Virus record (IMG/VR): IMGVR_UViG_3300005330_000014
Coordinates: 1-64,000 of that record
Source: a virus
Taxonomy: Duplodnaviria; Caudoviricetes
Strand: one strand, 5' to 3'
Length of the DNA stretch: 64,000 nt
A program made the translations under genes and the position numbers. Below are positions 35,256 through 51,516 of the stretch, one piece after another (the stretch's first letter is position 1; each line of letters opens with the position of its first letter). The notes beneath the pieces were generated by a model that was given only the letters and a program-made list of their open reading frames with translations, was not told the origin of the DNA and did not search any database.

Positions 35256-36083
35256 TTACTTTTTAGAAGGAGAATACTCTTCAATTTCCCCGAGAGATGT
35301 TGGATACCCTCTCCCCGGCGGATAATTATGTTTTGAATGACTTACATTCTGATTATGATTATTTTGATTATTTAATTCACGGAATTTCTTCGTAATAAAC
35401 TTGCATAAATCGGAACGCATAACATCCTCCTCTGTAAATTCCCAGCAATAGATGCCTTGATCGCGGGACTCTTGATTGTTAAACAAATTATATACAATAT
35501 CGAATCCGCTATTCTTAATATCAGCTTGTTCTGGATCGCCGCATACGAAAGTCTTGCAATATCTACCAATTCTACTTAAAAAAGTCAAAATCTCTTTAAC
35601 TGAACTATTTTGAGCTTCATCTAAACAGAGTGCTTTAACTTGATAATCTAGGCCGCGCAGAAACCCTAATGGCTGGCATACCAAACGATTTTCACTTTCT
35701 AATTTTTTAATTTCGGCTGGAGATAAGAACATATCTAACTTATCCAAGAAAGGCATCATGAAAGGTTGAATTTTCTCAGAGCTATTACCGGGCAGATAAC
35801 CCATTTTAGAATCTGCGCTCTCAACATTGCCGCGCACTAATATTAAATCAGATACTTTCTTTTGATTAAGTAACTGTAACATTGTAAAAATAGAAATACT
35901 TGTTTTGGAAGTGCCCGCGCACCCCTTAACAATCATAATTTGAGTATGAGGATCAAGTGCTAAATCTAAAAATGCTCTCTGATTTTCAGTCCAATTCAGT
36001 TCTTTGATTCTTAATTCAAAATCTATCTTATTCTTTTGAACTACTTTAGGGGACCGATCCTGCTTATTTTTATTTTGTGCCAT
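35256..36083 (-). CDS. phoH: PhoH family ATPase
   Basis: GCAGTSKT Walker A; MGYLPG; LGFLRG; LDEAQN; GDPEQAD. Confidence 0.92.
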   Translation of the reverse strand: MAQNKNKQDRSPKVVQKNKIDFELRIKELNWTENQRAFLDLALDPHTQIMIVKGCAGTSKTSISIFTMLQLLNQKKVSDLILVRGNVESADSKMGYLPGNSSEKIQPFMMPFLDKLDMFLSPAEIKKLESENRLVCQPLGFLRGLDYQVKALCLDEAQNSSVKEILTFLSRIGRYCKTFVCGDPEQADIKNSGFDIVYNLFNNQESRDQGIYCWEFTEEDVMRSDLCKFITKKFRELNNQNNHNQNVSHSKHNYPPGRGYPTSLGEIEEYSPSKK

Positions 36084-36150
36084 ATATTATTGATTATTTA
36101 ATTATATAATTTTGTTTTAACTATTTACTGTGTAAATTATTGACTCCATT

Positions 36151-36423
36151 ATGAATATCGATATGATTAAAAGTTTAGAACATATAGAACCTACCCAACT
36201 TAACAAAATACTTATTATTTACCATACTTTTGAAATATTCGCGAAATTATATAAAAATTTATTAGAATCTAAAAAAATTTCACATTACTCTGTAGAAACT
36301 CAAATTGCATTATCTAAATTAGATAAATGGTGGGAGAACAGAAAGAAAATCCAATATTTTGAACCCAACCAAGATAAACAAGCATTACTTAAATTATTAG
36401 AACTTTGGGAATACTTAGGTTAG
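36151..36423 (+). CDS. Hypothetical protein
   Basis: Preceded by plus-strand late motif TGTGTAAA at 36129-36136. Confidence 0.6.
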   Translation: MNIDMIKSLEHIEPTQLNKILIIYHTFEIFAKLYKNLLESKKISHYSVETQIALSKLDKWWENRKKIQYFEPNQDKQALLKLLELWEYLG

Positions 36424-36998
36424 TATTTAATAATATAATTTAGAATAATTGTTGGCTGTAATTTACTAACAGGATTATTACTTCCTGTATCCCCGGTAGC
36501 CACACTACTACTAGCAGTAGCAACAACAGCATCGCCACCAGAAGCTACTGAAGCTGTGCCACCGTCAATAGGTGAAACTGAATGATGATGAATAGGCAAT
36601 TCACTAATATCAAATACATGACTTTCTTCACCATTTGATGCCCCTAACGTTGTTCCTCCAATATAAGTTGTAGTTAAACGGCCAGCAGCAACGCCACCCA
36701 TATTATCCTTACCCGCCGGGATATTACCTCTTAAATCAGGTAAAACGAACGTGCTAACGCCATCCCCCGCCCCAAAAGTTGTTCCTATAATACCAAATAA
36801 ACTAGAATAAGTAACTCTACTTACTGTCTGACCATAAGAAAGTAGCCAACCAGTCGGAGCAGTAGCTCCCGCATAAGGTAAAACAATACCGGGTGGCAAT
36901 AAAGCAGTTAAACTATTCAAGAAAAGATTTTGCCCGTCAGTGGATAAAGTTGCTGTTCCTAAGAGGATTGAATTCGCGGCAAGTGCTGGAGTAGACAT
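36420..36998 (-). CDS. Second phage tail collar domain protein
   Basis: PPGIVLPYAGATAPTGWLL...VSRVTYSSLFGIIG..FGAGDG..TFVLPDLRG; own late promoter at 37039-37046. Confidence 0.88.
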   Translation of the reverse strand: MSTPALAANSILLGTATLSTDGQNLFLNSLTALLPPGIVLPYAGATAPTGWLLSYGQTVSRVTYSSLFGIIGTTFGAGDGVSTFVLPDLRGNIPAGKDNMGGVAAGRLTTTYIGGTTLGASNGEESHVFDISELPIHHHSVSPIDGGTASVASGGDAVVATASSSVATGDTGSNNPVSKLQPTIILNYIIKY

Positions 36999-37090
36999 TA
37001 TTTAAAAAATGAAATAAATTAACAAAGTTTCGTTAATCTTTACACTTTTCTGAGATTTTCTCTGTATTCACCGAATAAATTTATCAAAAG

Positions 37091-37118
37091 TTGACTTCCT
37101 TAATCTGAGTGATACACT
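37091..37118 (+). promoter_or_regulatory. Sigma70-type promoter for the plus-strand block
   Basis: TTGACT-16 nt-TG-extended TACACT. Confidence 0.6.
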
Positions 37119-37162
37119 GGTAGAATCATATAGGAAGGAAAGCAAATCAAAAGACGAGGAAA

Positions 37163-37720
37163 ATGAACAATATCAAATTACCCTTTTCAGTAGTAAAAAT
37201 TTTAAGTGAGTCCGATGCCATTGATTTAGTAAATAAAGAGCCGAAGAAATGGAATGTTGTTTCTATTTGGTCGGGAGGCGGCGGAAAACACGGCAATACC
37301 CGGCCTGAACACCGCGCGGCCAAAACCTTATGTCAGCATCGTTTTCATGACATAACTTGTACGGAATGGGAAGCACAAGCGGGCGGCTGGATTTTATGTA
37401 GTAAATGGCATATTTTAACTATTTTAAACTATGCAAAAACTAAATACGATGAACCATTATTGGTGCATTGTCACGCGGGAGTTTCTAGAAGTAGCGCAAT
37501 CACTTTCTTAATTCTATTAGATTATTTTAAAGATAAATCAGAAAATCCAATTGACGATACTTTAACTTATTTAAATCAAATCAAACATTGGAGCATGATT
37601 ATTCCCAACAAACATATTTTAAGTTTGGGTATGCACATTCTGGCAAAAGATGCGGGACAAGAGATGGAATGGAATCGCATACTTTACAATCATAATATAT
37701 TTGCTAAATACTACAACTAA
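37163..37720 (+). CDS. Cys-based protein tyrosine/dual-specificity phosphatase
   Basis: VHCHAGVSRSSA (HCxxGxxR) P-loop; FHD acid loop. Confidence 0.88.
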   Translation: MNNIKLPFSVVKILSESDAIDLVNKEPKKWNVVSIWSGGGGKHGNTRPEHRAAKTLCQHRFHDITCTEWEAQAGGWILCSKWHILTILNYAKTKYDEPLLVHCHAGVSRSSAITFLILLDYFKDKSENPIDDTLTYLNQIKHWSMIIPNKHILSLGMHILAKDAGQEMEWNRILYNHNIFAKYYN

Positions 37721-37729
37721 CTAATTTAC

Positions 37730-37803
37730 GCGGTGCTGGTGTTTAATGGCTAGCACGGGAGTTTTCCAAACTTTAGGAAAGGATTCGAGTTCCTTGCGCC
37801 GCA
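37730..37803 (+). tRNA. trnG: tRNA-Gly(TCC)
   Basis: Cloverleaf GCGGTGC/GCGCCGC; anticodon loop TT-TCC-AA; T arm AAGGA-TTCGAGT-TCCTT; CCA not encoded. Confidence 0.88.
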
Positions 37804-37818
37804 CTTTTTAAACAATTT

Positions 37819-38040
37819 ATGTCAACATTTTTATCTGAAAAAAGAGAGTTATTGAATTCACTTTTGAAACAAAGAGAAATTGAATATAATAAATTAGTGC
37901 AAGCCTGTCAGTCGGGCGCTTACAAAGCTTGGAAAAAACGCAGAAAGAATTTAGACAAACTAAATGAACAATTACGAAATTTAAATTGTGGATATGGCGA
38001 TGAAAAATTTTATCAGAATACAAATTCCAAATCACAATGA
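37819..38040 (+). CDS. Hypothetical protein
   Basis: Overlapping ATGA junction with RNA ligase gene. Confidence 0.6.
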   Translation: MSTFLSEKRELLNSLLKQREIEYNKLVQACQSGAYKAWKKRRKNLDKLNEQLRNLNCGYGDEKFYQNTNSKSQ

Positions 38041-38669
38041 TAGAATATCCTTCAATACCTAATTCCAGCAAAGCTCCGCGAAAACATTGCGTAGCTTTTA
38101 ATAAATACGATGGGTCAAATTTCCGAGCTAAATGGACACAAAAACAAGGATTTAATCTATTTGGCACGCGGACCCAATTAATAGATGTTAATACTGAATT
38201 TTGGGGAGAAATGGTAGCAATCTTCCAAGATAAGTATGCAAAAATCTTAGATAAATATTTTAAATCCGAGAAGGATTATAGGAACGAAAGAGAAATAATA
38301 GTCTATGGAGAATTTTTCGGAGAACATTCATTCGCAGGCAGACATGAAAATGAGCCACACGATTTAGTTTTCTTTGATATTTTAGTTGGACATAAAAATC
38401 GCAAATTCATCTCCCCTTTAGAGTATGTAAAAGAATTTCAAGAGATAATTCCCGTTCCTGAGATTATATACGTAGGAAATCTAAACAACGACTTGATTCA
38501 AGACGTAAGAGATAATAAGTATAATTTAAAAGAAGGGGTAATTTGCAAAGGCACCGAAAAATCCGGGGCTTATGTTGGCGGTATTTGGAATTGCAAAATT
38601 AAAACGACCGATTATTTTAATAAATTAAAAGAATTACACGCAGAAGATTGGCAAAAATATTGGGAATAA
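38037..38669 (+). CDS. ATP-dependent RNA ligase (compact Rnl2-like nucleotidyltransferase domain)
   Basis: Motif I KYDGSN; III VYGEF; IIIa FFDI; IV EGVI; V KIK. Confidence 0.85.
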   Translation: MIEYPSIPNSSKAPRKHCVAFNKYDGSNFRAKWTQKQGFNLFGTRTQLIDVNTEFWGEMVAIFQDKYAKILDKYFKSEKDYRNEREIIVYGEFFGEHSFAGRHENEPHDLVFFDILVGHKNRKFISPLEYVKEFQEIIPVPEIIYVGNLNNDLIQDVRDNKYNLKEGVICKGTEKSGAYVGGIWNCKIKTTDYFNKLKELHAEDWQKYWE

Positions 38670-38673
38670 ATCT

Positions 38674-38880
38674 ATGAACGATAGATCAGAACGGCAAGGA
38701 TGTTATATTAGCGTAGAGGAAGCTAGAAAAATAATTACAGAGTTTATCAAAAGTAAATATAATAGAACAGTTGATTACATAGATGAAGATTACGAAATGG
38801 CAACTTATGATTTAGAAACTGGGCAAACTCTTTCTGAAGTGCTGGCGGGATTTAACGTCAAATTTAAAAAACAACATTAA
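38674..38880 (+). CDS. Hypothetical protein
   Basis: Operonic ORF. Confidence 0.55.
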   Translation: MNDRSERQGCYISVEEARKIITEFIKSKYNRTVDYIDEDYEMATYDLETGQTLSEVLAGFNVKFKKQH

Positions 38881-38889
38881 AAAATAACA

Positions 38890-39291
38890 ATGAATACTAT
38901 AATCAACCTCTTAATTCAACATGACTTTTTAGTTTTACTAATTAGTTCAATTTGGGTATCGGCAATGATTTCCCTTGCGGCAAAAGAGGAAGGAATATTT
39001 ATTCCCTTAATCGTATTGTCGTTTCTTGTATTATTTGTAATAACAAATTTACTCCCGCCTTATGGCAATTGGGAAACTGCAACTGTTACCGGAATAATTC
39101 CAGCCGCCGAGTTACAATCAATAGAAATGCCCGACCATACTATTGAAATTTGGCATGGCGAAAAGAAAATATGGGTTTTGAGTCAACTGAAAGATTATTT
39201 AAAGAAAGATAAAATAGATCATATGGAATATAGGCATAAGGATTTGTTTGGAATTGATTATGATAGCAATAGATTGATATTTGAAGACTAA
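38890..39291 (+). CDS. Membrane protein (two N-terminal TM helices)
   Basis: Hydrophobic N-terminal half. Confidence 0.6.
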   Translation: MNTIINLLIQHDFLVLLISSIWVSAMISLAAKEEGIFIPLIVLSFLVLFVITNLLPPYGNWETATVTGIIPAAELQSIEMPDHTIEIWHGEKKIWVLSQLKDYLKKDKIDHMEYRHKDLFGIDYDSNRLIFED

Positions 39292-39682
39292 GTTTATGAG
39301 CAATACTTATAAAGACGCTAAATTACAACGTAAACGACGTTTAGTTAAAGAAATTAGAAAACGTAAAAAAGAATTAGGCTTGTCTGATGTTTTATATTTT
39401 GAATGTGTTGATTCTGAATTGAATGGAATGATGAAAGAATTAAAGAATATTCAAATTGAACTTGGAATTAAGAAAGGATTTAAACAAGAGCGCCGACATT
39501 CTGCCGCGCATCGCCACGCCGCCATGAAAAATTCTAAGAAATGCGCCCGAATTAATAAACATGTTAAAAATCGAAAAGAATTACAAGCTACGTTGAAAGA
39601 AGATTTTTGTCATAATTGCAATTGTATTCCTTGTTGTTGTCAAATCGGGGGATACTCTGGCGATGAAGAATGCGGCTACTAA
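39281..39682 (+). CDS. Hypothetical basic protein with C-terminal Cys cluster
   Basis: Operonic ORF; CHNCNCIPCCC. Confidence 0.55.
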   Translation: MKTKFMSNTYKDAKLQRKRRLVKEIRKRKKELGLSDVLYFECVDSELNGMMKELKNIQIELGIKKGFKQERRHSAAHRHAAMKNSKKCARINKHVKNRKELQATLKEDFCHNCNCIPCCCQIGGYSGDEECGY

Positions 39683-39685
39683 ATT

Positions 39686-39973
39686 ATGAAACTTTTTAAA
39701 TTAAAACAACAATTGTTAAAACGAATTTCCAAACTAGAAAATAGATATGGAAAAGGTTATCCTATAAAACGTTTAGAGTATGCTCAAGAAGCAGTAATTA
39801 ACGTTCTTTTAAATTATCTAAAATCTTTAGAGTATCATTATCGAGATGACATATTTTTGAAGCCGCGCGGCCATAAAAACCATCCAGAATATAACGAAGC
39901 AATGAACTTTCTCAAATTACATGGAGAACAAATAGATGACGATGTATTCTCAGAATATAGATTAAAAAAATGA
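39686..39973 (+). CDS. Hypothetical protein
   Basis: Operonic ORF. Confidence 0.55.
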   Translation: MKLFKLKQQLLKRISKLENRYGKGYPIKRLEYAQEAVINVLLNYLKSLEYHYRDDIFLKPRGHKNHPEYNEAMNFLKLHGEQIDDDVFSEYRLKK

Positions 39974-40176
39974 ATATCCCAAAACATTTAGTTCCATTTA
40001 CAGATGGAGATTTAGTATGTTATAGGCAATTACACCCACCCGGGGAAGATGAACACTATGAAATAGTTGACAGATTGGATACTAACGCGGGATTCGCTAG
40101 AAGTTTACAAACAGCCAAATTTATAGTAGATTCAATTAACTTAGCTTATAAAATAAGCAAAATACACGGAGAATGA
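39970..40176 (+). CDS. Hypothetical protein
   Basis: ATGA overlap with upstream ORF. Confidence 0.55.
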   Translation: MNIPKHLVPFTDGDLVCYRQLHPPGEDEHYEIVDRLDTNAGFARSLQTAKFIVDSINLAYKISKIHGE

Positions 40177-40187
40177 ATCCGCGCTGC

Positions 40188-40361
40188 TTACTTATGAAGC
40201 AATCCACCAATTAAAGGAATAGCAAAGTAAAGTAATTGAACCAAAGCAACTAAGCCTAAAACAATATCAACAACTTTCTTAAACCACTCTGGAGTGACTG
40301 GGATTGCGTGATTGATAAGGTATAAACCAAGTAAAACAACTAATAGTATTAATAGTGACAT
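40188..40361 (-). CDS. Small two-TM membrane protein not in ORF track (MSLLILLVVLLGLYLINHAIPVTPEWFKKVVDIVLGLVALVQLLYFAIPLIGGLLHK)
   Basis: 57 aa; two hydrophobic helices; late motif AGTGTAAA ends 9 nt upstream of the ATG. Confidence 0.7.
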   Translation of the reverse strand: MSLLILLVVLLGLYLINHAIPVTPEWFKKVVDIVLGLVALVQLLYFAIPLIGGLLHK

Positions 40362-40394
40362 ATATAGAGTTTACACTAAATGACTGAATAATTT

Positions 40395-40616
40395 ATGAAA
40401 ATACATTTTCCTTTCGTTTATCCGCCGATTTCTTGGGGCGACGTAATCTATCTTATTAACATACGATTTCTTTTTTGGCATTTCCAAATACTTGAAGAAA
40501 CTAGAAAAAGAGGATATTGGATTTGTTTGAAATTCAATAAAACTCAATTGTGGCTATTCTTAATCGCTTTAAGATATAAGAAACAGTATTGGACAGCTTT
40601 TAAAAACCATCAATAA
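40395..40616 (+). CDS. Hypothetical protein
   Basis: Operonic ORF. Confidence 0.45.
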   Translation: MKIHFPFVYPPISWGDVIYLINIRFLFWHFQILEETRKRGYWICLKFNKTQLWLFLIALRYKKQYWTAFKNHQ

Positions 40617-40634
40617 ACAATTTAACTTTCAAAT

Positions 40635-40718
40635 TCTTGGGTGGCGAAATTGGTAGACGCACTTTCCTGTTAAGAAAGAGTCGAAAGACACTTGCTGGTT
40701 CGAGGCCAGCCCCAAGAG
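40635..40718 (+). tRNA. trnN: tRNA-Asn(GTT) with long (class II-like) variable arm
   Basis: TCTTGGG/CCCAAGA acceptor; G73; CTTTC-CTGTTAA-GAAAG anticodon arm; 15-nt variable region with GTC-GAAA-GAC; GCTGG-TTCGAGG-CCAGC T arm. Confidence 0.85.
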
Positions 40719-40945
40719 TTACTTTAAAATTATGAACAAACGAACAAAACTTAAATCAATAACAAAAAGGATAGGCTCTTGTGATTTTGCTGCGCGGATA
40801 ACGTTGAAATCGAATTTATAAATAACCGTACGATGGCGGGATTCGCTTTTTGTAAAGATACAGAAGCTTGTCATAAAAGGGATAAATCAAAATAGAAAAT
40901 ATGACTAAATCACAAGAATTTTTATCTCAACATTGTAATTAAATA

Positions 40946-41473
40946 ATGAAAACTAAAGAAATCAACGGCTCTCCATATCATTCAAGTTATTCCATGTCTC
41001 AAAAGTATATAGATCATCTTGTTTTAGAAAGAGATAGATACTTGCACCGCGCGCAAACCGCCGCTTTACAATACTGCGAAACAGGAAATGAAAAATACAA
41101 ACGCAGTGCTTTAGGTTTAAAACAACAATATCAGAAAAGAGCTAATAAGATTGATAATATCAGTCAACATTTGTACGGCTCAATTTGGTGTGTTGCGGCA
41201 TCTTTCGGTAAAGAAAAAGTAGAAGAAAGAAGGCGACAAGAATTAGCCGCACGGATTAAATGGATGATTGAGAATAATCAGTTGCCAAACAATATAGGAT
41301 TTGGTGGATTAGACCCTATTGAATACTATCACTCGAAAGGGATATGGAGGTTCTATACTGGTAATAGCATGGATGGTCATGCTTTTGTTTACGGACCTAT
41401 TAAAGCTCCTAATTTGGAAGTCCGCCCAGAATACAATTACAATTCATCAACTTGGTATTGGGTAAAAAGATAA
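40946..41473 (+). CDS. Hypothetical protein
   Basis: Operonic ORF. Confidence 0.6.
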   Translation: MKTKEINGSPYHSSYSMSQKYIDHLVLERDRYLHRAQTAALQYCETGNEKYKRSALGLKQQYQKRANKIDNISQHLYGSIWCVAASFGKEKVEERRRQELAARIKWMIENNQLPNNIGFGGLDPIEYYHSKGIWRFYTGNSMDGHAFVYGPIKAPNLEVRPEYNYNSSTWYWVKR

Positions 41474-41475
41474 AT

Positions 41476-41991
41476 ATGAATAATAACCTAGAAATCGAAC
41501 GAAAATTCTTACTTAAAGAATTACCAAAACTTGAACAATGCCGTCCAACTTCAATTGGCGCAACTCAAGGATATATATGTGTAACCCCGGATAAATCCGC
41601 AAGACTTACTCATAAAGATGGTAAATACAAACTTACTTATAAAGGTGGAACAGACCCATTAGAAAGAGTAGAAATAGAACAAGAAATAAGCAAAGAAATG
41701 TATGATATTTTGTGGCCTAAAACTGAAGGCGCGCGAATTGAAAAAACTAGATATTATTATAAATACGAATTTAAAAGTAAGCCGATAATTATGAGTGATG
41801 GTCGGTCTGGATTTTATTCTAGCATTTTTCTAATTGAAGTAGATGTATTCCACGGCAAGCATGAAGGATTGATTGTTGCTGAAATTGAATTTGCTAGCCG
41901 CGCGGAAGCACTTAATTTTGAGCCGCCCGATTGGTTTGGAGAAGAAGTAACTAATGATCCTAAGTATTTAAATGCTAACTTAGCAAGTTAA
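41476..41991 (+). CDS. CYTH (triphosphate tunnel) domain protein
   Basis: EIERKFLL; QGY; EIE; IEKTRY; IEVD; VAEIEF; PDWFGEEVT. Confidence 0.9.
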   Translation: MNNNLEIERKFLLKELPKLEQCRPTSIGATQGYICVTPDKSARLTHKDGKYKLTYKGGTDPLERVEIEQEISKEMYDILWPKTEGARIEKTRYYYKYEFKSKPIIMSDGRSGFYSSIFLIEVDVFHGKHEGLIVAEIEFASRAEALNFEPPDWFGEEVTNDPKYLNANLAS

Positions 41992-41993
41992 TT

Positions 41994-42197
41994 ATGAATA
42001 AAACTAAATATCGAATAATTTTAAGAGAAGGTTGGTTCTATCCTCAATACAAAGGATGGATTTTATGGCATGATATTCAATACATAGGATTAGCTAGATA
42101 TTGTTTTGATAAATTAGAAGATGCCGAACGATTTATAGAAAGTCGTCGCGACTACAAACAAGAAAACGGATTTGAAATAGTAAAAGAATATGAATAA
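41994..42197 (+). CDS. Hypothetical protein
   Basis: Operonic ORF; WFYPQYKGW pattern. Confidence 0.55.
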   Translation: MNKTKYRIILREGWFYPQYKGWILWHDIQYIGLARYCFDKLEDAERFIESRRDYKQENGFEIVKEYE

Positions 42198-42396
42198 ACT
42201 AGACGAATTCCTATTTGTAGAAAACCATAACGGGAATAGTATTGATAAAGAGTCCGCCGAGAAGGGTTGGAATGCAGCGATTGAAGCCGTTTCAAGATTC
42301 TTAAAAAGTAAATGCAGAAGTAGTTATGATATTTATTGGTGTAAAAGTTATGACCACTTACCTTTATCAGTAATAGAAGAAATCAAGAAACTATGA
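42190..42396 (+). CDS. Hypothetical protein
   Basis: Operonic ORF. Confidence 0.5.
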   Translation: MNKLDEFLFVENHNGNSIDKESAEKGWNAAIEAVSRFLKSKCRSSYDIYWCKSYDHLPLSVIEEIKKL

Positions 42397-42593
42397 AATG
42401 TACAAATTGCAAACTATTTGGAAAATGTCGTGAAATCCGCGCAGCTACCCGCGAGCATTTCCGCTGGAGTTTTCATAATCTTATAGCTCATCCTTTAAGT
42501 GAAATAGTATTTCTATTAGGGTTTGAAGAGTTAAGTAATAAGATTCATGATAAGAGTATTCCTGAACATGAAGTAAATCAAGGAAGAGGATAA
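42393..42593 (+). CDS. Hypothetical protein
   Basis: Operonic ORF; WxxHNLIAHPLSE pattern. Confidence 0.55.
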   Translation: MKCTNCKLFGKCREIRAATREHFRWSFHNLIAHPLSEIVFLLGFEELSNKIHDKSIPEHEVNQGRG

Positions 42594-42597
42594 ACTA

Positions 42598-42849
42598 ATG
42601 ACTAATCTAACTATGATGCTAAAAGCCGGATACGTCCCGCCGCCCGCGTGGATGGATAAGAAAACTGCACAATTTTTTGTTTGTGTGGCTTATTTAGGAT
42701 ATAGAAAGTCTAGAGAGTTATACTATCGTCTTAAAAACTTTCAACCCAACGATAAATTACCAATAACAGAACAATACTTAGTTATGCTAGAAAATTGGAA
42801 TAACCTTCAATTAATTAAAGGGTACTATTATGATATCCCCCGAAACTAA
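42598..42849 (+). CDS. Hypothetical protein
   Basis: Operonic ORF. Confidence 0.5.
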   Translation: MTNLTMMLKAGYVPPPAWMDKKTAQFFVCVAYLGYRKSRELYYRLKNFQPNDKLPITEQYLVMLENWNNLQLIKGYYYDIPRN

Positions 42850-43045
42850 ACATTTGTTATATTGGTGGAAAGAATGGGCCGCGCGCCTACTTCGCACCAC
42901 CTACCATTTATTTAATCGGAAAGCTTATCGGCGATGGAAAACTGAATTTTATAAGAAAAGACTTAAAAGAAAGTTTGATTTATATAAAAGTTTAAGCAAA
43001 GAGGATTATAAACTATTTTTTGAATTGGATGAAAAGGAATTTTAA
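42830..43045 (+). CDS. Hypothetical protein
   Basis: Operonic ORF. Confidence 0.5.
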   Translation: MISPETKHLLYWWKEWAARLLRTTYHLFNRKAYRRWKTEFYKKRLKRKFDLYKSLSKEDYKLFFELDEKEF

Positions 43046-43056
43046 GGATTGACGGT

Positions 43057-43608
43057 ATGATTAAGTATTATAAACAAAAGTTCAAAACAGATTGTCTATT
43101 AGCCGCCGCTGAGAACTTCACCCAACAACCACGTAATCACTTTGGTAAATTAGAATGGCGAGAGCATAATGGGGACAAATATTTAAAATATCATAGTTTT
43201 GCTAAAGCTCTATGTAAATGGGGTGGCGCTCAAATTGTATTTCAAGGAACTGTCCATTTAAATGATAAACCTGCGATTTTAGGGTCGGTGGCTAAATTAA
43301 GCGGGCACTATATTTGTCATGCGCTGTTTTGGGATGGGCGACACGCCTATTGTCCCCAACGAGATTCCTTTGTTGATTTAAATGAATTGGATATATCGTA
43401 CGTAATATTACATCCACACTATAATCATCCATTAGCTTACAAGAATATCAAACATGTTTGCCATGATTGGGACCGATATATATCAGAATATAAAAACGAA
43501 GATACAAAGGAACCCGAGAGAAAAGAATTAATTACTTTATTTTATAATGGCCGCGCATATCCCGGGGATTTAGTTCGAGCAAACACTAATAGAGAATATC
43601 CTAAATAG
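43057..43608 (+). CDS. Peptidase C39-like (papain-fold) protein
   Basis: Q....DC at N-terminus; CHALFWDG catalytic His/Asp region. Confidence 0.6.
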   Translation: MIKYYKQKFKTDCLLAAAENFTQQPRNHFGKLEWREHNGDKYLKYHSFAKALCKWGGAQIVFQGTVHLNDKPAILGSVAKLSGHYICHALFWDGRHAYCPQRDSFVDLNELDISYVILHPHYNHPLAYKNIKHVCHDWDRYISEYKNEDTKEPERKELITLFYNGRAYPGDLVRANTNREYPK

Positions 43609-43619
43609 AAATTACTGGT

Positions 43620-43907
43620 ATGAATACTTTTAATAAAATCTGCGCGTGGTTTATGGTTTTAATGATGGTAGTAATAAGTAATGTAGTGACGTATCGCTGG
43701 ACAACTTACCACGACGAATGCGCGGCCATCGAACATGACTTCGCTAAATATAACCAGTATTTAGATTTTGAATGGAAATCCACCCATGATTTAGGCATAG
43801 AAGAAATTAATAAACAATATAGATTATTTCAGATAAAAAAGGCTATTGAAGATGCTAACGCCCACGCCACCCCACTTGTCCCGCCCGAATCCAAGAGATT
43901 TTTTTGA
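43620..43907 (+). CDS. Hypothetical protein with N-terminal TM/signal segment
   Basis: Hydrophobic N-terminus. Confidence 0.55.
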   Translation: MNTFNKICAWFMVLMMVVISNVVTYRWTTYHDECAAIEHDFAKYNQYLDFEWKSTHDLGIEEINKQYRLFQIKKAIEDANAHATPLVPPESKRFF

Positions 43908-43910
43908 ATT

Positions 43911-44219
43911 ATGAAACAAACAAATAAAATAAAACCTAAACAATACGAACAAAATTTAAATACTTTACGAAAAAACTCTCCGCATACTCTTTCTATTTCT
44001 AATCAACAGGTAGATAAAAGGTCTAAAATGAAATGTTCTACATGCGGTAATAGCGGCATTGTATATCCTAAATATAGATCAACTGTAGGATATGGCGGCT
44101 CAGGCGGAGAAGATAACGCATCTATGTGTCCCAAATGCTATGGGCTATCTTGCGCCCAATTTTTTCTAGTTGAATCGGGCGGCGGCTATTTTGCCTATAA
44201 AGCCAAACCACTTTGGTAA
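43911..44219 (+). CDS. Hypothetical zinc-ribbon protein
   Basis: CxxCxxxG ... CxxC. Confidence 0.5.
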   Translation: MKQTNKIKPKQYEQNLNTLRKNSPHTLSISNQQVDKRSKMKCSTCGNSGIVYPKYRSTVGYGGSGGEDNASMCPKCYGLSCAQFFLVESGGGYFAYKAKPLW

Positions 44220-44322
44220 TTAATTAATTAAATAATTAAAATGGTTTCAGCCAAATCGCTCCCGAATTTTTTTTGAGAATCGGAGATCAAATAAATAAAC
44301 AAACTTCAAAAAATTTAGACTT

Positions 44323-44670
44323 TTGCCAATGACTCCAGAACAACTTATTAAAGATTTAGAATCGCGCGGTTACAAACCCACCCGACAACGTAATAAAACA
44401 AACGCGGACAATACAACTTTATTAGAATATATTGAACTACCTTTCAATTCGGGCGGCTGCATTGATATTTATCCAATATTACCAGATGGATCGGGCGGAG
44501 AAGTAATAATTATCTACACAGAGAATTATAGAGATATAAAGAATCGCGTGGATAATGTATTTGAGTTATCTCTCAATGATAGTGACCCTAATTTTAATTT
44601 AGTCAATTGGATAGTAGAATTATTTGATAAAGGACTAGAGAATTTACCGAAATACGAAAAACCTTCCTAA
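44323..44670 (+). CDS. Hypothetical protein (last gene of plus block)
   Basis: ORF; start uncertain. Confidence 0.55.
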   Translation: MPMTPEQLIKDLESRGYKPTRQRNKTNADNTTLLEYIELPFNSGGCIDIYPILPDGSGGEVIIIYTENYRDIKNRVDNVFELSLNDSDPNFNLVNWIVELFDKGLENLPKYEKPS

Positions 44671-44947
44671 ACTAGAAGAACTAAGTAAGTATATAACTGG
44701 TGAAAATTTAACGAATTTATTAAATTAAATATTATATTTATTGAATTTATTGAATTACTCTGTAAAATTGCTTTTCGATTTTTATTTTAAGTTTAAAACA
44801 TGCACCCCGTGCGGGCAAAAAAATTTTTGGCACCCCCCGCATTTTCCAAAAACCGTAGGGCACCTATGTTACTAACTATCTTATTAGTTCTCATGTTATA
44901 GTTATCTATGCTATATGTTATCTAGTTAGTTAGTTATCTCTATGTTA

Positions 44948-45010
44948 GTACAAAACAAAAGCCGCGCAACCTAGCTAGTTAGCAGTTATGCTGTAGCATA
45001 GGCGCGCGGC
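44948..45010 (-). terminator. Terminator ending the 45.0-47.8 kb operon (hairpin + 9 nt + GTAC)
   Basis: GCCGCGC/GCGCGGC stem, TTTTGTTTT, GTAC. Confidence 0.7.
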
Positions 45011-45024
45011 TCTTAGTTAGTTAA

Positions 45025-45393
45025 TTACTCTCCGCTGATTACAGCTTGGCAACCGTCAGCGAACGCTTGCGCATATCGCGTGTCATGTTTGCGGTTATGC
45101 TCAATATAACGCTTGGCTTTATTCACCATTGCGTTGCGTTCATCCGCTAGCCTTGCTATCAGTAGTAATTCATCCCTCGCCGCTAGCGAACTTTTTTCTC
45201 CGTATTCGACCGCATGTATCAGCACGACGCTTTCCCATGTTGGCGTACAATCAATACTCCCCACTGGTGTCTTATTCTCCGCTTGTTGCGCTCTAAACGC
45301 GTCTACTTGCTCGCCCTTGCCTTGCCAGTGTTTGCGTTGGCGTTCGTTTCCCTTGTTGGATTGTTTGATTAGGTCAGTCTGCTTTTGTTTCAT
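45025..45393 (-). CDS. Hypothetical protein
   Basis: Preceded by (AACT)n leader. Confidence 0.65.
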   Translation of the reverse strand: MKQKQTDLIKQSNKGNERQRKHWQGKGEQVDAFRAQQAENKTPVGSIDCTPTWESVVLIHAVEYGEKSSLAARDELLLIARLADERNAMVNKAKRYIEHNRKHDTRYAQAFADGCQAVISGE

Positions 45394-45411
45394 AGGTAAT
45401 AGGTTAGTTAG

Positions 45412-45561
45412 TTAGTTGTTAAGGAGTTGAATGATTGAGTTGATAGGTTGCGCGTGGGAATAGATGGCAAGCTTAAGCTCGCGACCAATGCCAGCGATGA
45501 AGAAAGCCGCGCGACTAGGGCGGCGAATGATGCACACGAGATGGAGGGCGATGTTTCGCAT
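45412..45561 (-). CDS. Small hypothetical protein (MRNIALHLVC...)
   Basis: ATG adjacent to upstream stop; C-terminal part of the tracked 45412-45678 ORF. Confidence 0.4.
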   Translation of the reverse strand: MRNIALHLVCIIRRPSRAAFFIAGIGRELKLAIYSHAQPINSIIQLLNN

Positions 45562-45562
45562 A

Positions 45563-45835
45563 CTAGCCTTTCTTCGCTTGCTGTGCGCACCGATACGCTG
45601 GCGTATGGTGGGGCCAAGCTTCATGTCCGCTAAGGGTAAGGCGGAAATGAGACAACGCATATACAGCCATAGGGCCACAAGCTGACAGTCCGCCTTGCGC
45701 GTTTATCCATCCTTCTGCATAGCCTATATAATACGCCATTTCTACGGGGGACAATTCCCCGTTAGCGTTGTATTTAGGTTGCTCAATTATCTCTGTCAGC
45801 TTTGCTAGCAGTACTTGATACGGTGTTTTTGGCAT
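45563..45835 (-). CDS. Hypothetical protein
   Basis: (AACT)n leader. Confidence 0.6.
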   Translation of the reverse strand: MPKTPYQVLLAKLTEIIEQPKYNANGELSPVEMAYYIGYAEGWINAQGGLSACGPMAVYALSHFRLTLSGHEAWPHHTPAYRCAQQAKKG

Positions 45836-45919
45836 ATGATTGAATTAGTTAGTTAGTTGATTAGTGAGGCTAGGCAAACGGATGGAACGTCACGCTTTAG
45901 CGGCTTTAGCCATTATGGG

Positions 45920-46474
45920 TTACACACACTCTTCAGGGTCAATCTCTGTTAGTCCCTCAGTGTCCACGCTAGGCGCATCGCCCGCACTGCTAGCGCCATT
46001 TCCGCCCTCCCCTGCTAGCTTGTTGAGATTTTGACCGTTGAGCCAATAAACGTTATTCACGTCCTTGGTTAGCATGCCGCTATCGCGCAAAGCGAGTACC
46101 TTGCCTATCTGCTCCTCACGCGTGAGGCCGTTGATACCAAGCGCAATTTCCTTTGCCGGGGTGAACGTCCTAAACGTCCCATAACGCGCGTTAAAGGCTG
46201 CTTCGTTCGCTCCCCGCGTAGGCTGCATTACTGGCGATGATGCGCGCGCTACGCTAGCCATGTCGCTCACTTGTCGCACGCTAGCCGCAATGCGTTGCGG
46301 ATTCACTCCCGCTGCAACAAGCCCATCATATATCTCCAGAGCGTGTTTCACGTCACCTGCCACTAGCATAATTGCAAAGCTAATTGGCGCGTTAATTGGC
46401 GTTTCACGCGGCTCGATAGTTTCCGCTTGCGCGGCTTTTGCCGCTTTCTTCTTTTGAGTCGTTTTCTTTTTCAT
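45920..46474 (-). CDS. Hypothetical protein with basic N-tail, RuvA-domain-III-like segment and acidic C-tail
   Basis: LVAAGVNPQRIAASVRQV resembles RuvA C-terminal [18 protein letters not shown] (by eye). Confidence 0.55.
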   Translation of the reverse strand: MKKKTTQKKKAAKAAQAETIEPRETPINAPISFAIMLVAGDVKHALEIYDGLVAAGVNPQRIAASVRQVSDMASVARASSPVMQPTRGANEAAFNARYGTFRTFTPAKEIALGINGLTREEQIGKVLALRDSGMLTKDVNNVYWLNGQNLNKLAGEGGNGASSAGDAPSVDTEGLTEIDPEECV

Positions 46475-51432: not shown

Positions 51433-51516
51433 TGGTGGCCCGCCTCGGACTCGAACCGAGAAACCTTTCGGTCAGGGATTTTAAGTCCCCCGTGTTTGCC
51501 ATTTCACCAGCGGGCC
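51433..51516 (-). tRNA. trnL: tRNA-Leu(TAA)
   Basis: GGCCCGC/GCGGGCC acceptor; loop CT-TAA-AA; long variable arm; TTCGAGT T loop; encoded ACCA. Confidence 0.92.

Follow-up and report, generated by a model that had tools for sequence, protein, structure and literature searches.

The window analysed here, a stretch of 64,000 nucleotides that forms the first 64 kb of a 208,233-bp soil-phage record (CheckV completeness 95%), carries at 40635-40718 on the plus strand an 84-nt gene for tRNA-Asn(GUU) whose body has a class II shape. We think that the product of this gene is a functional phage tRNA on which the host loads asparagine and that it belongs to a family widespread in phages and mobile tRNA arrays, and we put the probability of this reading at about 0.72. 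Textbooks and reviews describe long variable arms in bacteria as limited to the Leu, Ser, Tyr and Sec tRNAs. Judged from the sequences of its members, the family is a real and recurrent exception to this class II rule, large and covarying, with the arm placed on a tRNA-Asn that has kept its Asn marks. In the openly available full-text literature we found no description of a long-arm (class II) tRNA-Asn.

Anatomy and fold of the gene

The gene has the general features of a cloverleaf, namely a 7-bp acceptor stem, G18 G19, a 7-nt anticodon loop with U33, a 5-bp T stem and a TTCRA loop, and every stem of the window's copy is free of mismatches. Its extent (positions 1-73 of the tRNA) follows from ARAGORN, from segmentation of the sequence and from a covariance model, R1, described below. 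The acceptor stem (TCTTGGG/CCCAAGA; 40635-40641 with 40711-40717) starts with U1-A72 and C2-G71, and U8 G9 (TG) stands between it and a Leu-type D arm (40644-40660) composed of a 3-bp stem, GCG/CGC, and an 11-nt loop, AAATTGGTAGA, that contains G18 G19; this arm is near-identical in native Planctomycete tRNA-Leu. After A26 comes the anticodon arm CTTTC-CTGTTAA-GAAAG (40662-40678), with the anticodon GTT at 40669-40671. The variable region of 15 nt (40679-40693) consists of an A, the hairpin GTC-GAAA-GAC with its 3-bp stem, and ACTT, the final T of which is the partner of A15 in the 15-48 pair. The T arm is GCTGG-TTCGAGG-CCAGC (40694-40710) and the discriminator is G73 (40718), which is followed directly by TTAC, the CCA end not being encoded. 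All of these elements are on the plus strand. The preliminary description had listed a GTT anticodon in a CT-GTT-AA loop, U1-A72, G73, a Leu-like D arm and a 15-nt region with GTC-GAAA-GAC, and its anatomy is correct in every detail by sequence, ARAGORN and fold.

ARAGORN calls the gene tRNA-Asn(gtt), in agreement with the isotype proposed earlier, at 40634-40719, with an extra T.G pair that gives an acceptor stem of 8 bp. This 8-bp reading was dropped, since many relatives encode CCA directly after G73, which leaves the T.G pair outside the mature ends; the 7/5 reading of acceptor and T stems with G73 is right because these relatives encode G-CCA. We also considered an allo-tRNA or tRNA-Sec-like body, with stems of 8/4, 9/3 or 8/5, and found 7/5 here. 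The minimum-energy fold from ViennaRNA is the same cloverleaf with its extra hairpin, at -26.3 kcal/mol. Taken alone this energy is unremarkable (z -1.78; 13/200 shuffles fold as well), and support for the fold stems from the relatives, not from energy. The Rfam tRNA model RF00005 matches the gene only in part (40635-40689) and at 19.3 bits, below its gathering cut-off of 29 bits; the phage's own tRNA-Leu passes the same model with 54.1 bits.

With canonical class I tRNA-Asn(GUU) the gene shares the CU-GUU-AA loop, G73 and the same slot in phage tRNA sets, and U1-A72 is common to it and to the stand-alone tRNA-Asn genes of Gaiellales and Planctomycetes; the bacterial Asn identity marks (G34 U35 U36, G73, U1-A72) are all present. 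The class I body with a variable loop of 4-5 nt that is usual for tRNA-Asn is absent: in canonical tRNA-Asn the D stem is of 4 bp, position 9 is A (A9) and the variable loop is of 5 nt, whereas the window's tRNA has U8-G9, a 3-bp D stem, an 11-nt D loop and a 15-nt hairpin region. The tRNA-Asn of phage T5 (AY543070 33952-34029) differs from it further in having G1-C72 in place of U1-A72. The resemblance to bacterial tRNA-Leu lies in a near-identical D arm (TGGCGRAAYTGGYAGACGC), in A15 pairing with U48 and in a variable arm that is short, its stem measuring 3-4 bp under a GNRA loop. However, bacterial tRNA-Leu has A73 and G1-C72, and the long-arm Asn family has G73, U1-A72 and an Asn anticodon; the combination of A73 and a Leu anticodon that defines tRNA-Leu is thus replaced here by G73 and GTT. 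The long arm and G73 of a tRNA-Ser are present, but together with C2-G71 and U1-A72. The phage's own tRNA-Leu(UAA), at 51436-51516 on the minus strand, has CCA encoded and an arm, ACC-GAAA-GGT, much like that of the tRNA-Asn, and is the second-best match to R1 in the genome (57.2 bits).

Another published likeness is with the allo-tRNAs and irregular class II tRNAs of bacteria and phages, in which long arms occur with anticodons beyond those of Leu, Ser and Tyr (Mukai et al., 2017; accessible text of PMC5389517). Allo-tRNAs as described there have 8/4 or 9/3 stems and carry Ser or Ala whatever the anticodon, whereas the long-arm Asn family has 7/5 stems and keeps the Asn marks. GUU is absent from the main text of that paper, and its two mentions of Asn there concern the amino acid at amber codons, not tRNA-Asn (PMC5389517).

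A covarying family in phages and tRNA arrays

Relatives were collected by exact-pattern scans of IMG/VR, which returned 2 loci for the D arm with the anticodon loop, 9 for the anticodon loop with the GAAA arm and the T loop, and 66 for a looser D-arm pattern with the anticodon loop. In these loci ARAGORN called 31 distinct tRNA-Asn(gtt) of 80-89 nt. The covariance model R1 was built from 40 distinct sequences, comprising the window's own, 30 viral ones and 9 from bacterial genomes. The invariance of the anticodon in the family is by construction, since CTGTTAA was part of each pattern used for retrieval. Members were defined by an R1 score of at least 65 bits in phage loci or at least 75 bits in Planctomycetes, with tRNA-Leu reaching at most 71 bits, together with U1-A72, G73 and a Leu-type D arm. 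The window's tRNA has all of these marks and scores 96.2 bits, a figure that is partly by construction as its sequence was in the training set of R1. When R1 was run on 63 of the 66 looser-pattern loci (the other three lie on contigs already covered), it found a member in 61/63, one of them cut by a contig end, and left two blank; run on 8 of the 9 GAAA-arm loci it found a member in 5/8, and the ninth shares a contig with locus L007, which has one. The family-only alignment holds 79 matches, 59 of them distinct, from about 66 viral contigs, prophage-like sites and Planctomycetes tRNA arrays.

Across the 59 distinct sequences, standard pairs fill 98.3% of cells and changes on both sides occur at 22/23 pairs, in an alignment that was fitted to R1 and is in that respect biased toward the structure. 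None of 500 shuffles reaches the observed pairing or covariation, and sliding the partners lowers pairing to 39-50%. All five helices change on both sides among these phage and bacterial sequences, including the acceptor stem (7/7 pairs) and the extra arm (3/3 pairs, 91.2% paired), and the T stem is fully paired in 59/59. The Levitt 15-48 pair lies outside the R1 model and is A-T in 55 members, G-C in 3 and another combination in 1 (n=59). Because the effect is large and this unmodelled pair covaries, we regard the long-arm tRNA fold as secure across the family.

Several marks outside the search patterns are also conserved: U1-A72 in 57/59 members, G73 in 59/59, C2-G71 in 46/59, U8-G9 in 54/59 and a TTCGA T loop in 54/59. 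G18 G19 and the 7-nt anticodon loop are kept, and CCA is encoded in many copies. The arm itself is usually short: of the 42 members whose variable region is at most 17 nt, 41 have a stem of 2-4 bp. A GNRA cap is present in 28 of the 59. A subgroup with longer arms accounts for 33 of the looser-pattern loci (in the range L017-L082; 17 distinct sequences; for example L018:284-381), with variable regions of 28-34 nt and stems of 8-12 bp. ARAGORN leaves most of this subgroup uncalled; six receive a call in a shifted register, Ile(aat) at three loci and Gly(acc) at three. With Rfam missing the tRNA-Asn at 40635-40718 and ARAGORN missing or misnaming the longer-arm subgroup, counts of phage tRNAs and analyses of codon supply will undercount Asn tRNAs. 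On a 164.7-kb IMG/VR contig, three tRNA-Asn(gtt) genes of 74, 84 and 72 nt stand in tandem (L007:203-450); the middle one is long-armed and its D arm is identical to that of the window's tRNA.

The same D-arm pattern, scanned against one genome per prokaryote species, matched 87 loci, at 21 of which ARAGORN called tRNA-Asn and at 66 no tRNA. Ten of the 21 are ordinary Asn genes of 74-77 nt in Gaiellales and similar groups. The other 11 are long-armed: four in Planctomycetes, five in Burkholderiales, Piscinibacter, Bradyrhizobium and Mesorhizobium, one of which is identical to an IMG/VR provirus copy, and two that are G1-C72 variants (L102, L136). In the four Planctomycetes (G001-G004; L197, L181, L183 and L176) the long-arm gene lies within arrays of 15-23 tRNA genes per 3 kb, and in all four genomes there is, besides, a canonical tRNA-Asn that stands alone. 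Array-borne long-arm Asn genes occur in 10/101 sampled genomes of that Planctomycete order, at 75-86 bits, and their arm sequences differ and still pair; the next 20 R1 loci in the order (at most 71.4 bits) are all native tRNA-Leu, ending in ...GCA or ...GTA. So the long-arm Asn design travels with phages and mobile tRNA arrays, on a body very close to that of bacterial tRNA-Leu.

The arrays in those 10 genomes (L349-L355 among them), with 11-24 tRNA genes per 3 kb, also hold Leu(cag) and Leu(gag) genes of only 75-76 nt, which lack the long arm. The ordinary tRNA-Asn and tRNA-Leu genes of array-bearing Planctomycetes stand alone elsewhere in the genome.

The preliminary description had looked to a survey of phage tRNA-Asn with long arms, which has now retrieved 59 distinct members, and had held that its reading would be refuted if such tRNAs proved common and were charged normally with Asn. 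The first half of that proviso describes what the scans and R1 return, long-arm tRNA-Asn being common in phages and mobile tRNA arrays; the other half, normal charging with asparagine, is a matter of probability that we consider next.

Amino acid identity and alternative readings

The accessible text of PMC9976931 places bacterial Asn identity in the anticodon and G73, which can be transplanted into tRNA-Lys, and assigns to U1-A72 the direction of GatCAB to Asp-tRNA-Asn; the same source lists two antideterminants, G73 for both LeuRS and TyrRS and C2-G71 for E. coli SerRS. Because U1-A72, G73 and, mostly, C2-G71 are kept, the family has all the positive Asn marks and a negative mark against each of the synthetases that serve class II arms. 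Class II normally comprises the tRNAs for Leu, Ser and Tyr, and recognition by SerRS relies on the long arm together with G73, according to the part of PMC7609411 that is accessible, which bears out what the preliminary description had said on both counts. Within the phage loci that carry the family, the arms of Leu tRNAs have stems of 4 bp in 5/5 cases, and those of Ser tRNAs stems of 3-7 bp, with 5-7 bp in 5/7.

The gene content of phage tRNA clusters and codon usage are in keeping with Asn as well. Among 19 phage loci with at least 10 tRNAs in 4 kb, the long-arm form is the sole Asn tRNA in 15, one of which has 18 tRNAs of 18 isotypes; two of the other four have the family's short-loop form, and two have short and long Asn tRNAs together. 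The phage studied here has seven tRNAs (Gly-UCC, Asn-GUU, Leu-UAA, Cys-GCA, Lys-UUU, Arg-UCU and Met), with no second Asn. In a crude set of 221 ORFs, AAA is its commonest codon (64.0 per 1000) and AAT the second (55.2), TTA stands at 42.8, and Asn makes up 6.9% of codons; TTA is the most used codon for Leu, as GGA is for Gly and AGA for Arg, and the phage's tRNAs match its top codons. When TerL was compared with 19 distinct relatives at conserved columns, 14 of 30 AAY codons faced N and 3 faced S, in a comparison limited to one protein and a shallow clade and hence a weak check. Ser codons in the same comparison faced S in 14/37 cases, much like AAY facing N, as is usual for codons with their standard meaning.

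We infer that the window's tRNA probably decodes AAU and AAC as asparagine. The host would charge it with Asn, either through AsnRS or through a non-discriminating AspRS followed by GatCAB, which would read Asn marks (GUU, G73, U1-A72) set on a leucine-type class II body with a 3-bp D stem, a large D loop, A15-U48 and a short arm, often with a GNRA cap. G73 and C2-G71 would repel LeuRS, TyrRS and SerRS, and the tRNA would supply the phage's second most used codon. Class IIb synthetases approach the tRNA from the side of the variable loop, and an extra arm could therefore hinder AsnRS or AspRS. If the tRNA is indeed charged with Asn, it would follow that a class II body is no obstacle to class IIb synthetases or to GatCAB, and this would be useful for tRNA engineering. 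Three effects of the arm had been suggested in the preliminary description: evasion of host anticodon nucleases, a change in the route of aminoacylation between AsnRS and GatCAB, and mischarging at AAY codons. We consider the last the least likely of the three, because the Asn marks and antideterminants are kept (U1-A72, G73 and mostly C2-G71) and the tRNA serves the phage's second commonest codon. To read 6.9% of codons as Ser or Leu would be ruinous.

Mischarging with serine would require SerRS to accept the tRNA through its long arm and G73, with AAY codons then read partly as Ser, by design or as a tolerated ambiguity. This reading draws on the fact that these two features are SerRS marks (accessible part of PMC7609411) and that G73 allo-tRNAs insert Ser whatever their anticodon (accessible text of PMC5389517); we nevertheless consider it highly improbable, given that the E. 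coli SerRS antideterminant C2-G71 (as listed in the accessible text of PMC9976931) is present in 46/59 members. U1-A72, which is not a Ser feature, is present in 57/59, and the arm is shorter (2-4-bp stems in 41/42 of the members with variable regions of at most 17 nt) than those of Ser tRNAs from the same loci, which span 3-7 bp and reach 5-7 bp in 5/7. The rank of AAT as second commonest codon, the 6.9% share of Asn and the 14 N to 3 S among 30 AAY codons of TerL also count against serine.

A leucine-accepting tRNA with a changed anticodon, which would have AAY read as Leu, has a counterpart in nematodes, where class II tRNAs carry anticodons for Gly or Ile. The D arm, A15-U48 and the size of the arm are all Leu-like, and R1 scores native tRNA-Leu at 57-71 bits, yet such a reading is scarcely credible when G73 is found in 59/59 members, as against A73 in five Leu tRNAs from the same loci and the ...GCA or ...GTA ends of 20 native Leu genes, and when G73 is an antideterminant for LeuRS (accessible text of PMC9976931). 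The chance that the gene is a decaying or chimeric pseudogene, a functionless product of recombination between neighbouring tRNA genes, is likewise very small. The Rfam score below cut-off would fit such an origin, as would the lack of a clear promoter in the tRNA region (2 promoter-like sites against 4.5 expected from shuffles) and the state of the nearest TerL relative (65% identity; record 100% complete), whose sole tRNA is a tRNA-Leu, from which we conclude that the long-arm Asn gene is dispensable in that lineage. However, changes on both sides in all five helices among 59 distinct sequences, and the absence of any stem mismatch in the window's copy, are not what decay would leave. An RNA with no part in decoding, which soaks up or blocks a host tRNA nuclease as a decoy or serves a phage enzyme, is a less remote alternative, though still an unlikely one. 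It finds some encouragement in the view of the authors of a study of the PARIS nuclease AriB, discussed below, that overexpressed viral tRNAs possibly inhibit AriB by competition (accessible text of PMC12409363). Against it, the features needed for translation are all kept (7/5 stems, TTCGA in 54/59, G18 G19, the 7-nt anticodon loop, CCA in many copies), the long-arm type stands in for the ordinary Asn tRNA where a phage tRNA set is nearly complete, and the 95%-complete phage record yields no match to an AsnRS-like gene (PF00152).

Genome surroundings and a possible role for the arm

The record is that of a tailed phage and encodes a large terminase, tail fibre proteins and PhoH. The DNA runs containing it carry a rhizosphere metagenome label; three of them yielded contig pieces only, and no variants. 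Positions 36000-46000 of the window had no match among GenBank phages by megablast, and blastn with the tRNA as query gave just one Ruegeria phage tRNA-Leu and one 24-nt match. The matches of TerL are distant only, at no more than 28% identity, to phages of Bacillus, Clostridium and Synechococcus. In a synteny check, 0/71 TerL relatives had a tRNA within 10 kb. A more distant phage relative (G006) has an ordinary 75-nt Asn tRNA, in a set (Asn, Lys, Met, Ile, Leu, Arg and Gln) that resembles that of the phage studied here. No match to a CCA-adding enzyme (PF01743) was found in the phage genome. Amid the tRNA-Gly and tRNA-Asn genes lie those for a PTP/dual-specificity-phosphatase-like protein (37163-37720, plus strand) and a CYTH-domain protein (41452-41991, plus strand), and an RNA ligase gene (38037-38669, plus strand; PF09414, 52 bits) is found 2 kb upstream of the tRNA-Asn. 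All three are within 3.5 kb of the tRNA-Asn, and together they may make up a set for RNA repair or end healing beside the phage tRNAs.

Anticodon-loop variants of phage tRNAs reportedly resist tRNA-targeting defences. A parallel for the present gene is the set of T5 tRNA-Lys, tRNA-Thr and tRNA-Asn that acts against PARIS AriB, where the phage likewise brings a copy of a nuclease-targeted tRNA species (accessible text of PMC12409363). According to that text, AriB cuts the E. coli tRNAs for Lys (UUU), for Thr (UGU) and for Asn (GUU) at 40/41, next to the base of the variable region; the AlphaFold 3 model made by the authors has a second AriB subunit in contact with D-loop U16-U17; and growth is restored when all three tRNAs are supplied in their T5 versions. 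The phage escapes described there (PMC12409363, accessible text) consist of point substitutions, placed close to the cut site or within the D loop, whereas the window's tRNA has a wholly exchanged body and an added arm.

An exchanged D arm and a hairpin next to position 44 would alter exactly the side of the tRNA that faces AriB. Host defences that deplete tRNA-Asn could act poorly on such a tRNA, and translation would then continue once the host tRNA had been cut. Escape from tRNA-cutting host defences is a plausible purpose for the arm, and is our leading guess. More specifically, it is possible, and we put it forward tentatively, that the exchanged body and arm make a defence-proof Asn tRNA that would still be a substrate of AsnRS or GatCAB and would go unrecognised by tRNA-Asn-depleting nucleases, whether of the PARIS type or others.

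This defence idea fits the sequence around the AriB site, which is UAAGA instead of UAAUC in the window's copy, the RNA ligase, phosphatase-like and CYTH neighbours, and the occurrence of other long-arm isotypes. Counting against it, UAAUC is kept in 31/59 members, pyrimidines at 16-17 are kept in most, and the tRNA-Asn with which T5 counters AriB has a short variable loop (and G1-C72). Because of that short loop, the PARIS rescue data are silent on the arm itself. If the tRNA is charged with Asn, the family would provide a natural test case for the hardening of phage tRNAs against tRNA-cutting immunity.

In the same phage clusters, taken to 4 kb either side of the family members (L280-L345), the other long-arm isotypes are Lys(CUU), with four copies, Lys(UUU) and Ile(UAU), with two each, and Thr(tgt), Met(cat), Gln(ttg), Trp(cca) and Pro(tgg), with one each. 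Were the defence reading true, the same trick would explain the neighbouring long-arm Lys, Thr, Ile, Met and Gln tRNAs. In these clusters ARAGORN also called 11 Leu tRNAs shorter than 80 nt. In the long-arm Gln copy (L344), the D arm is of the same Leu type and the acceptor stem likewise has U1-A72.
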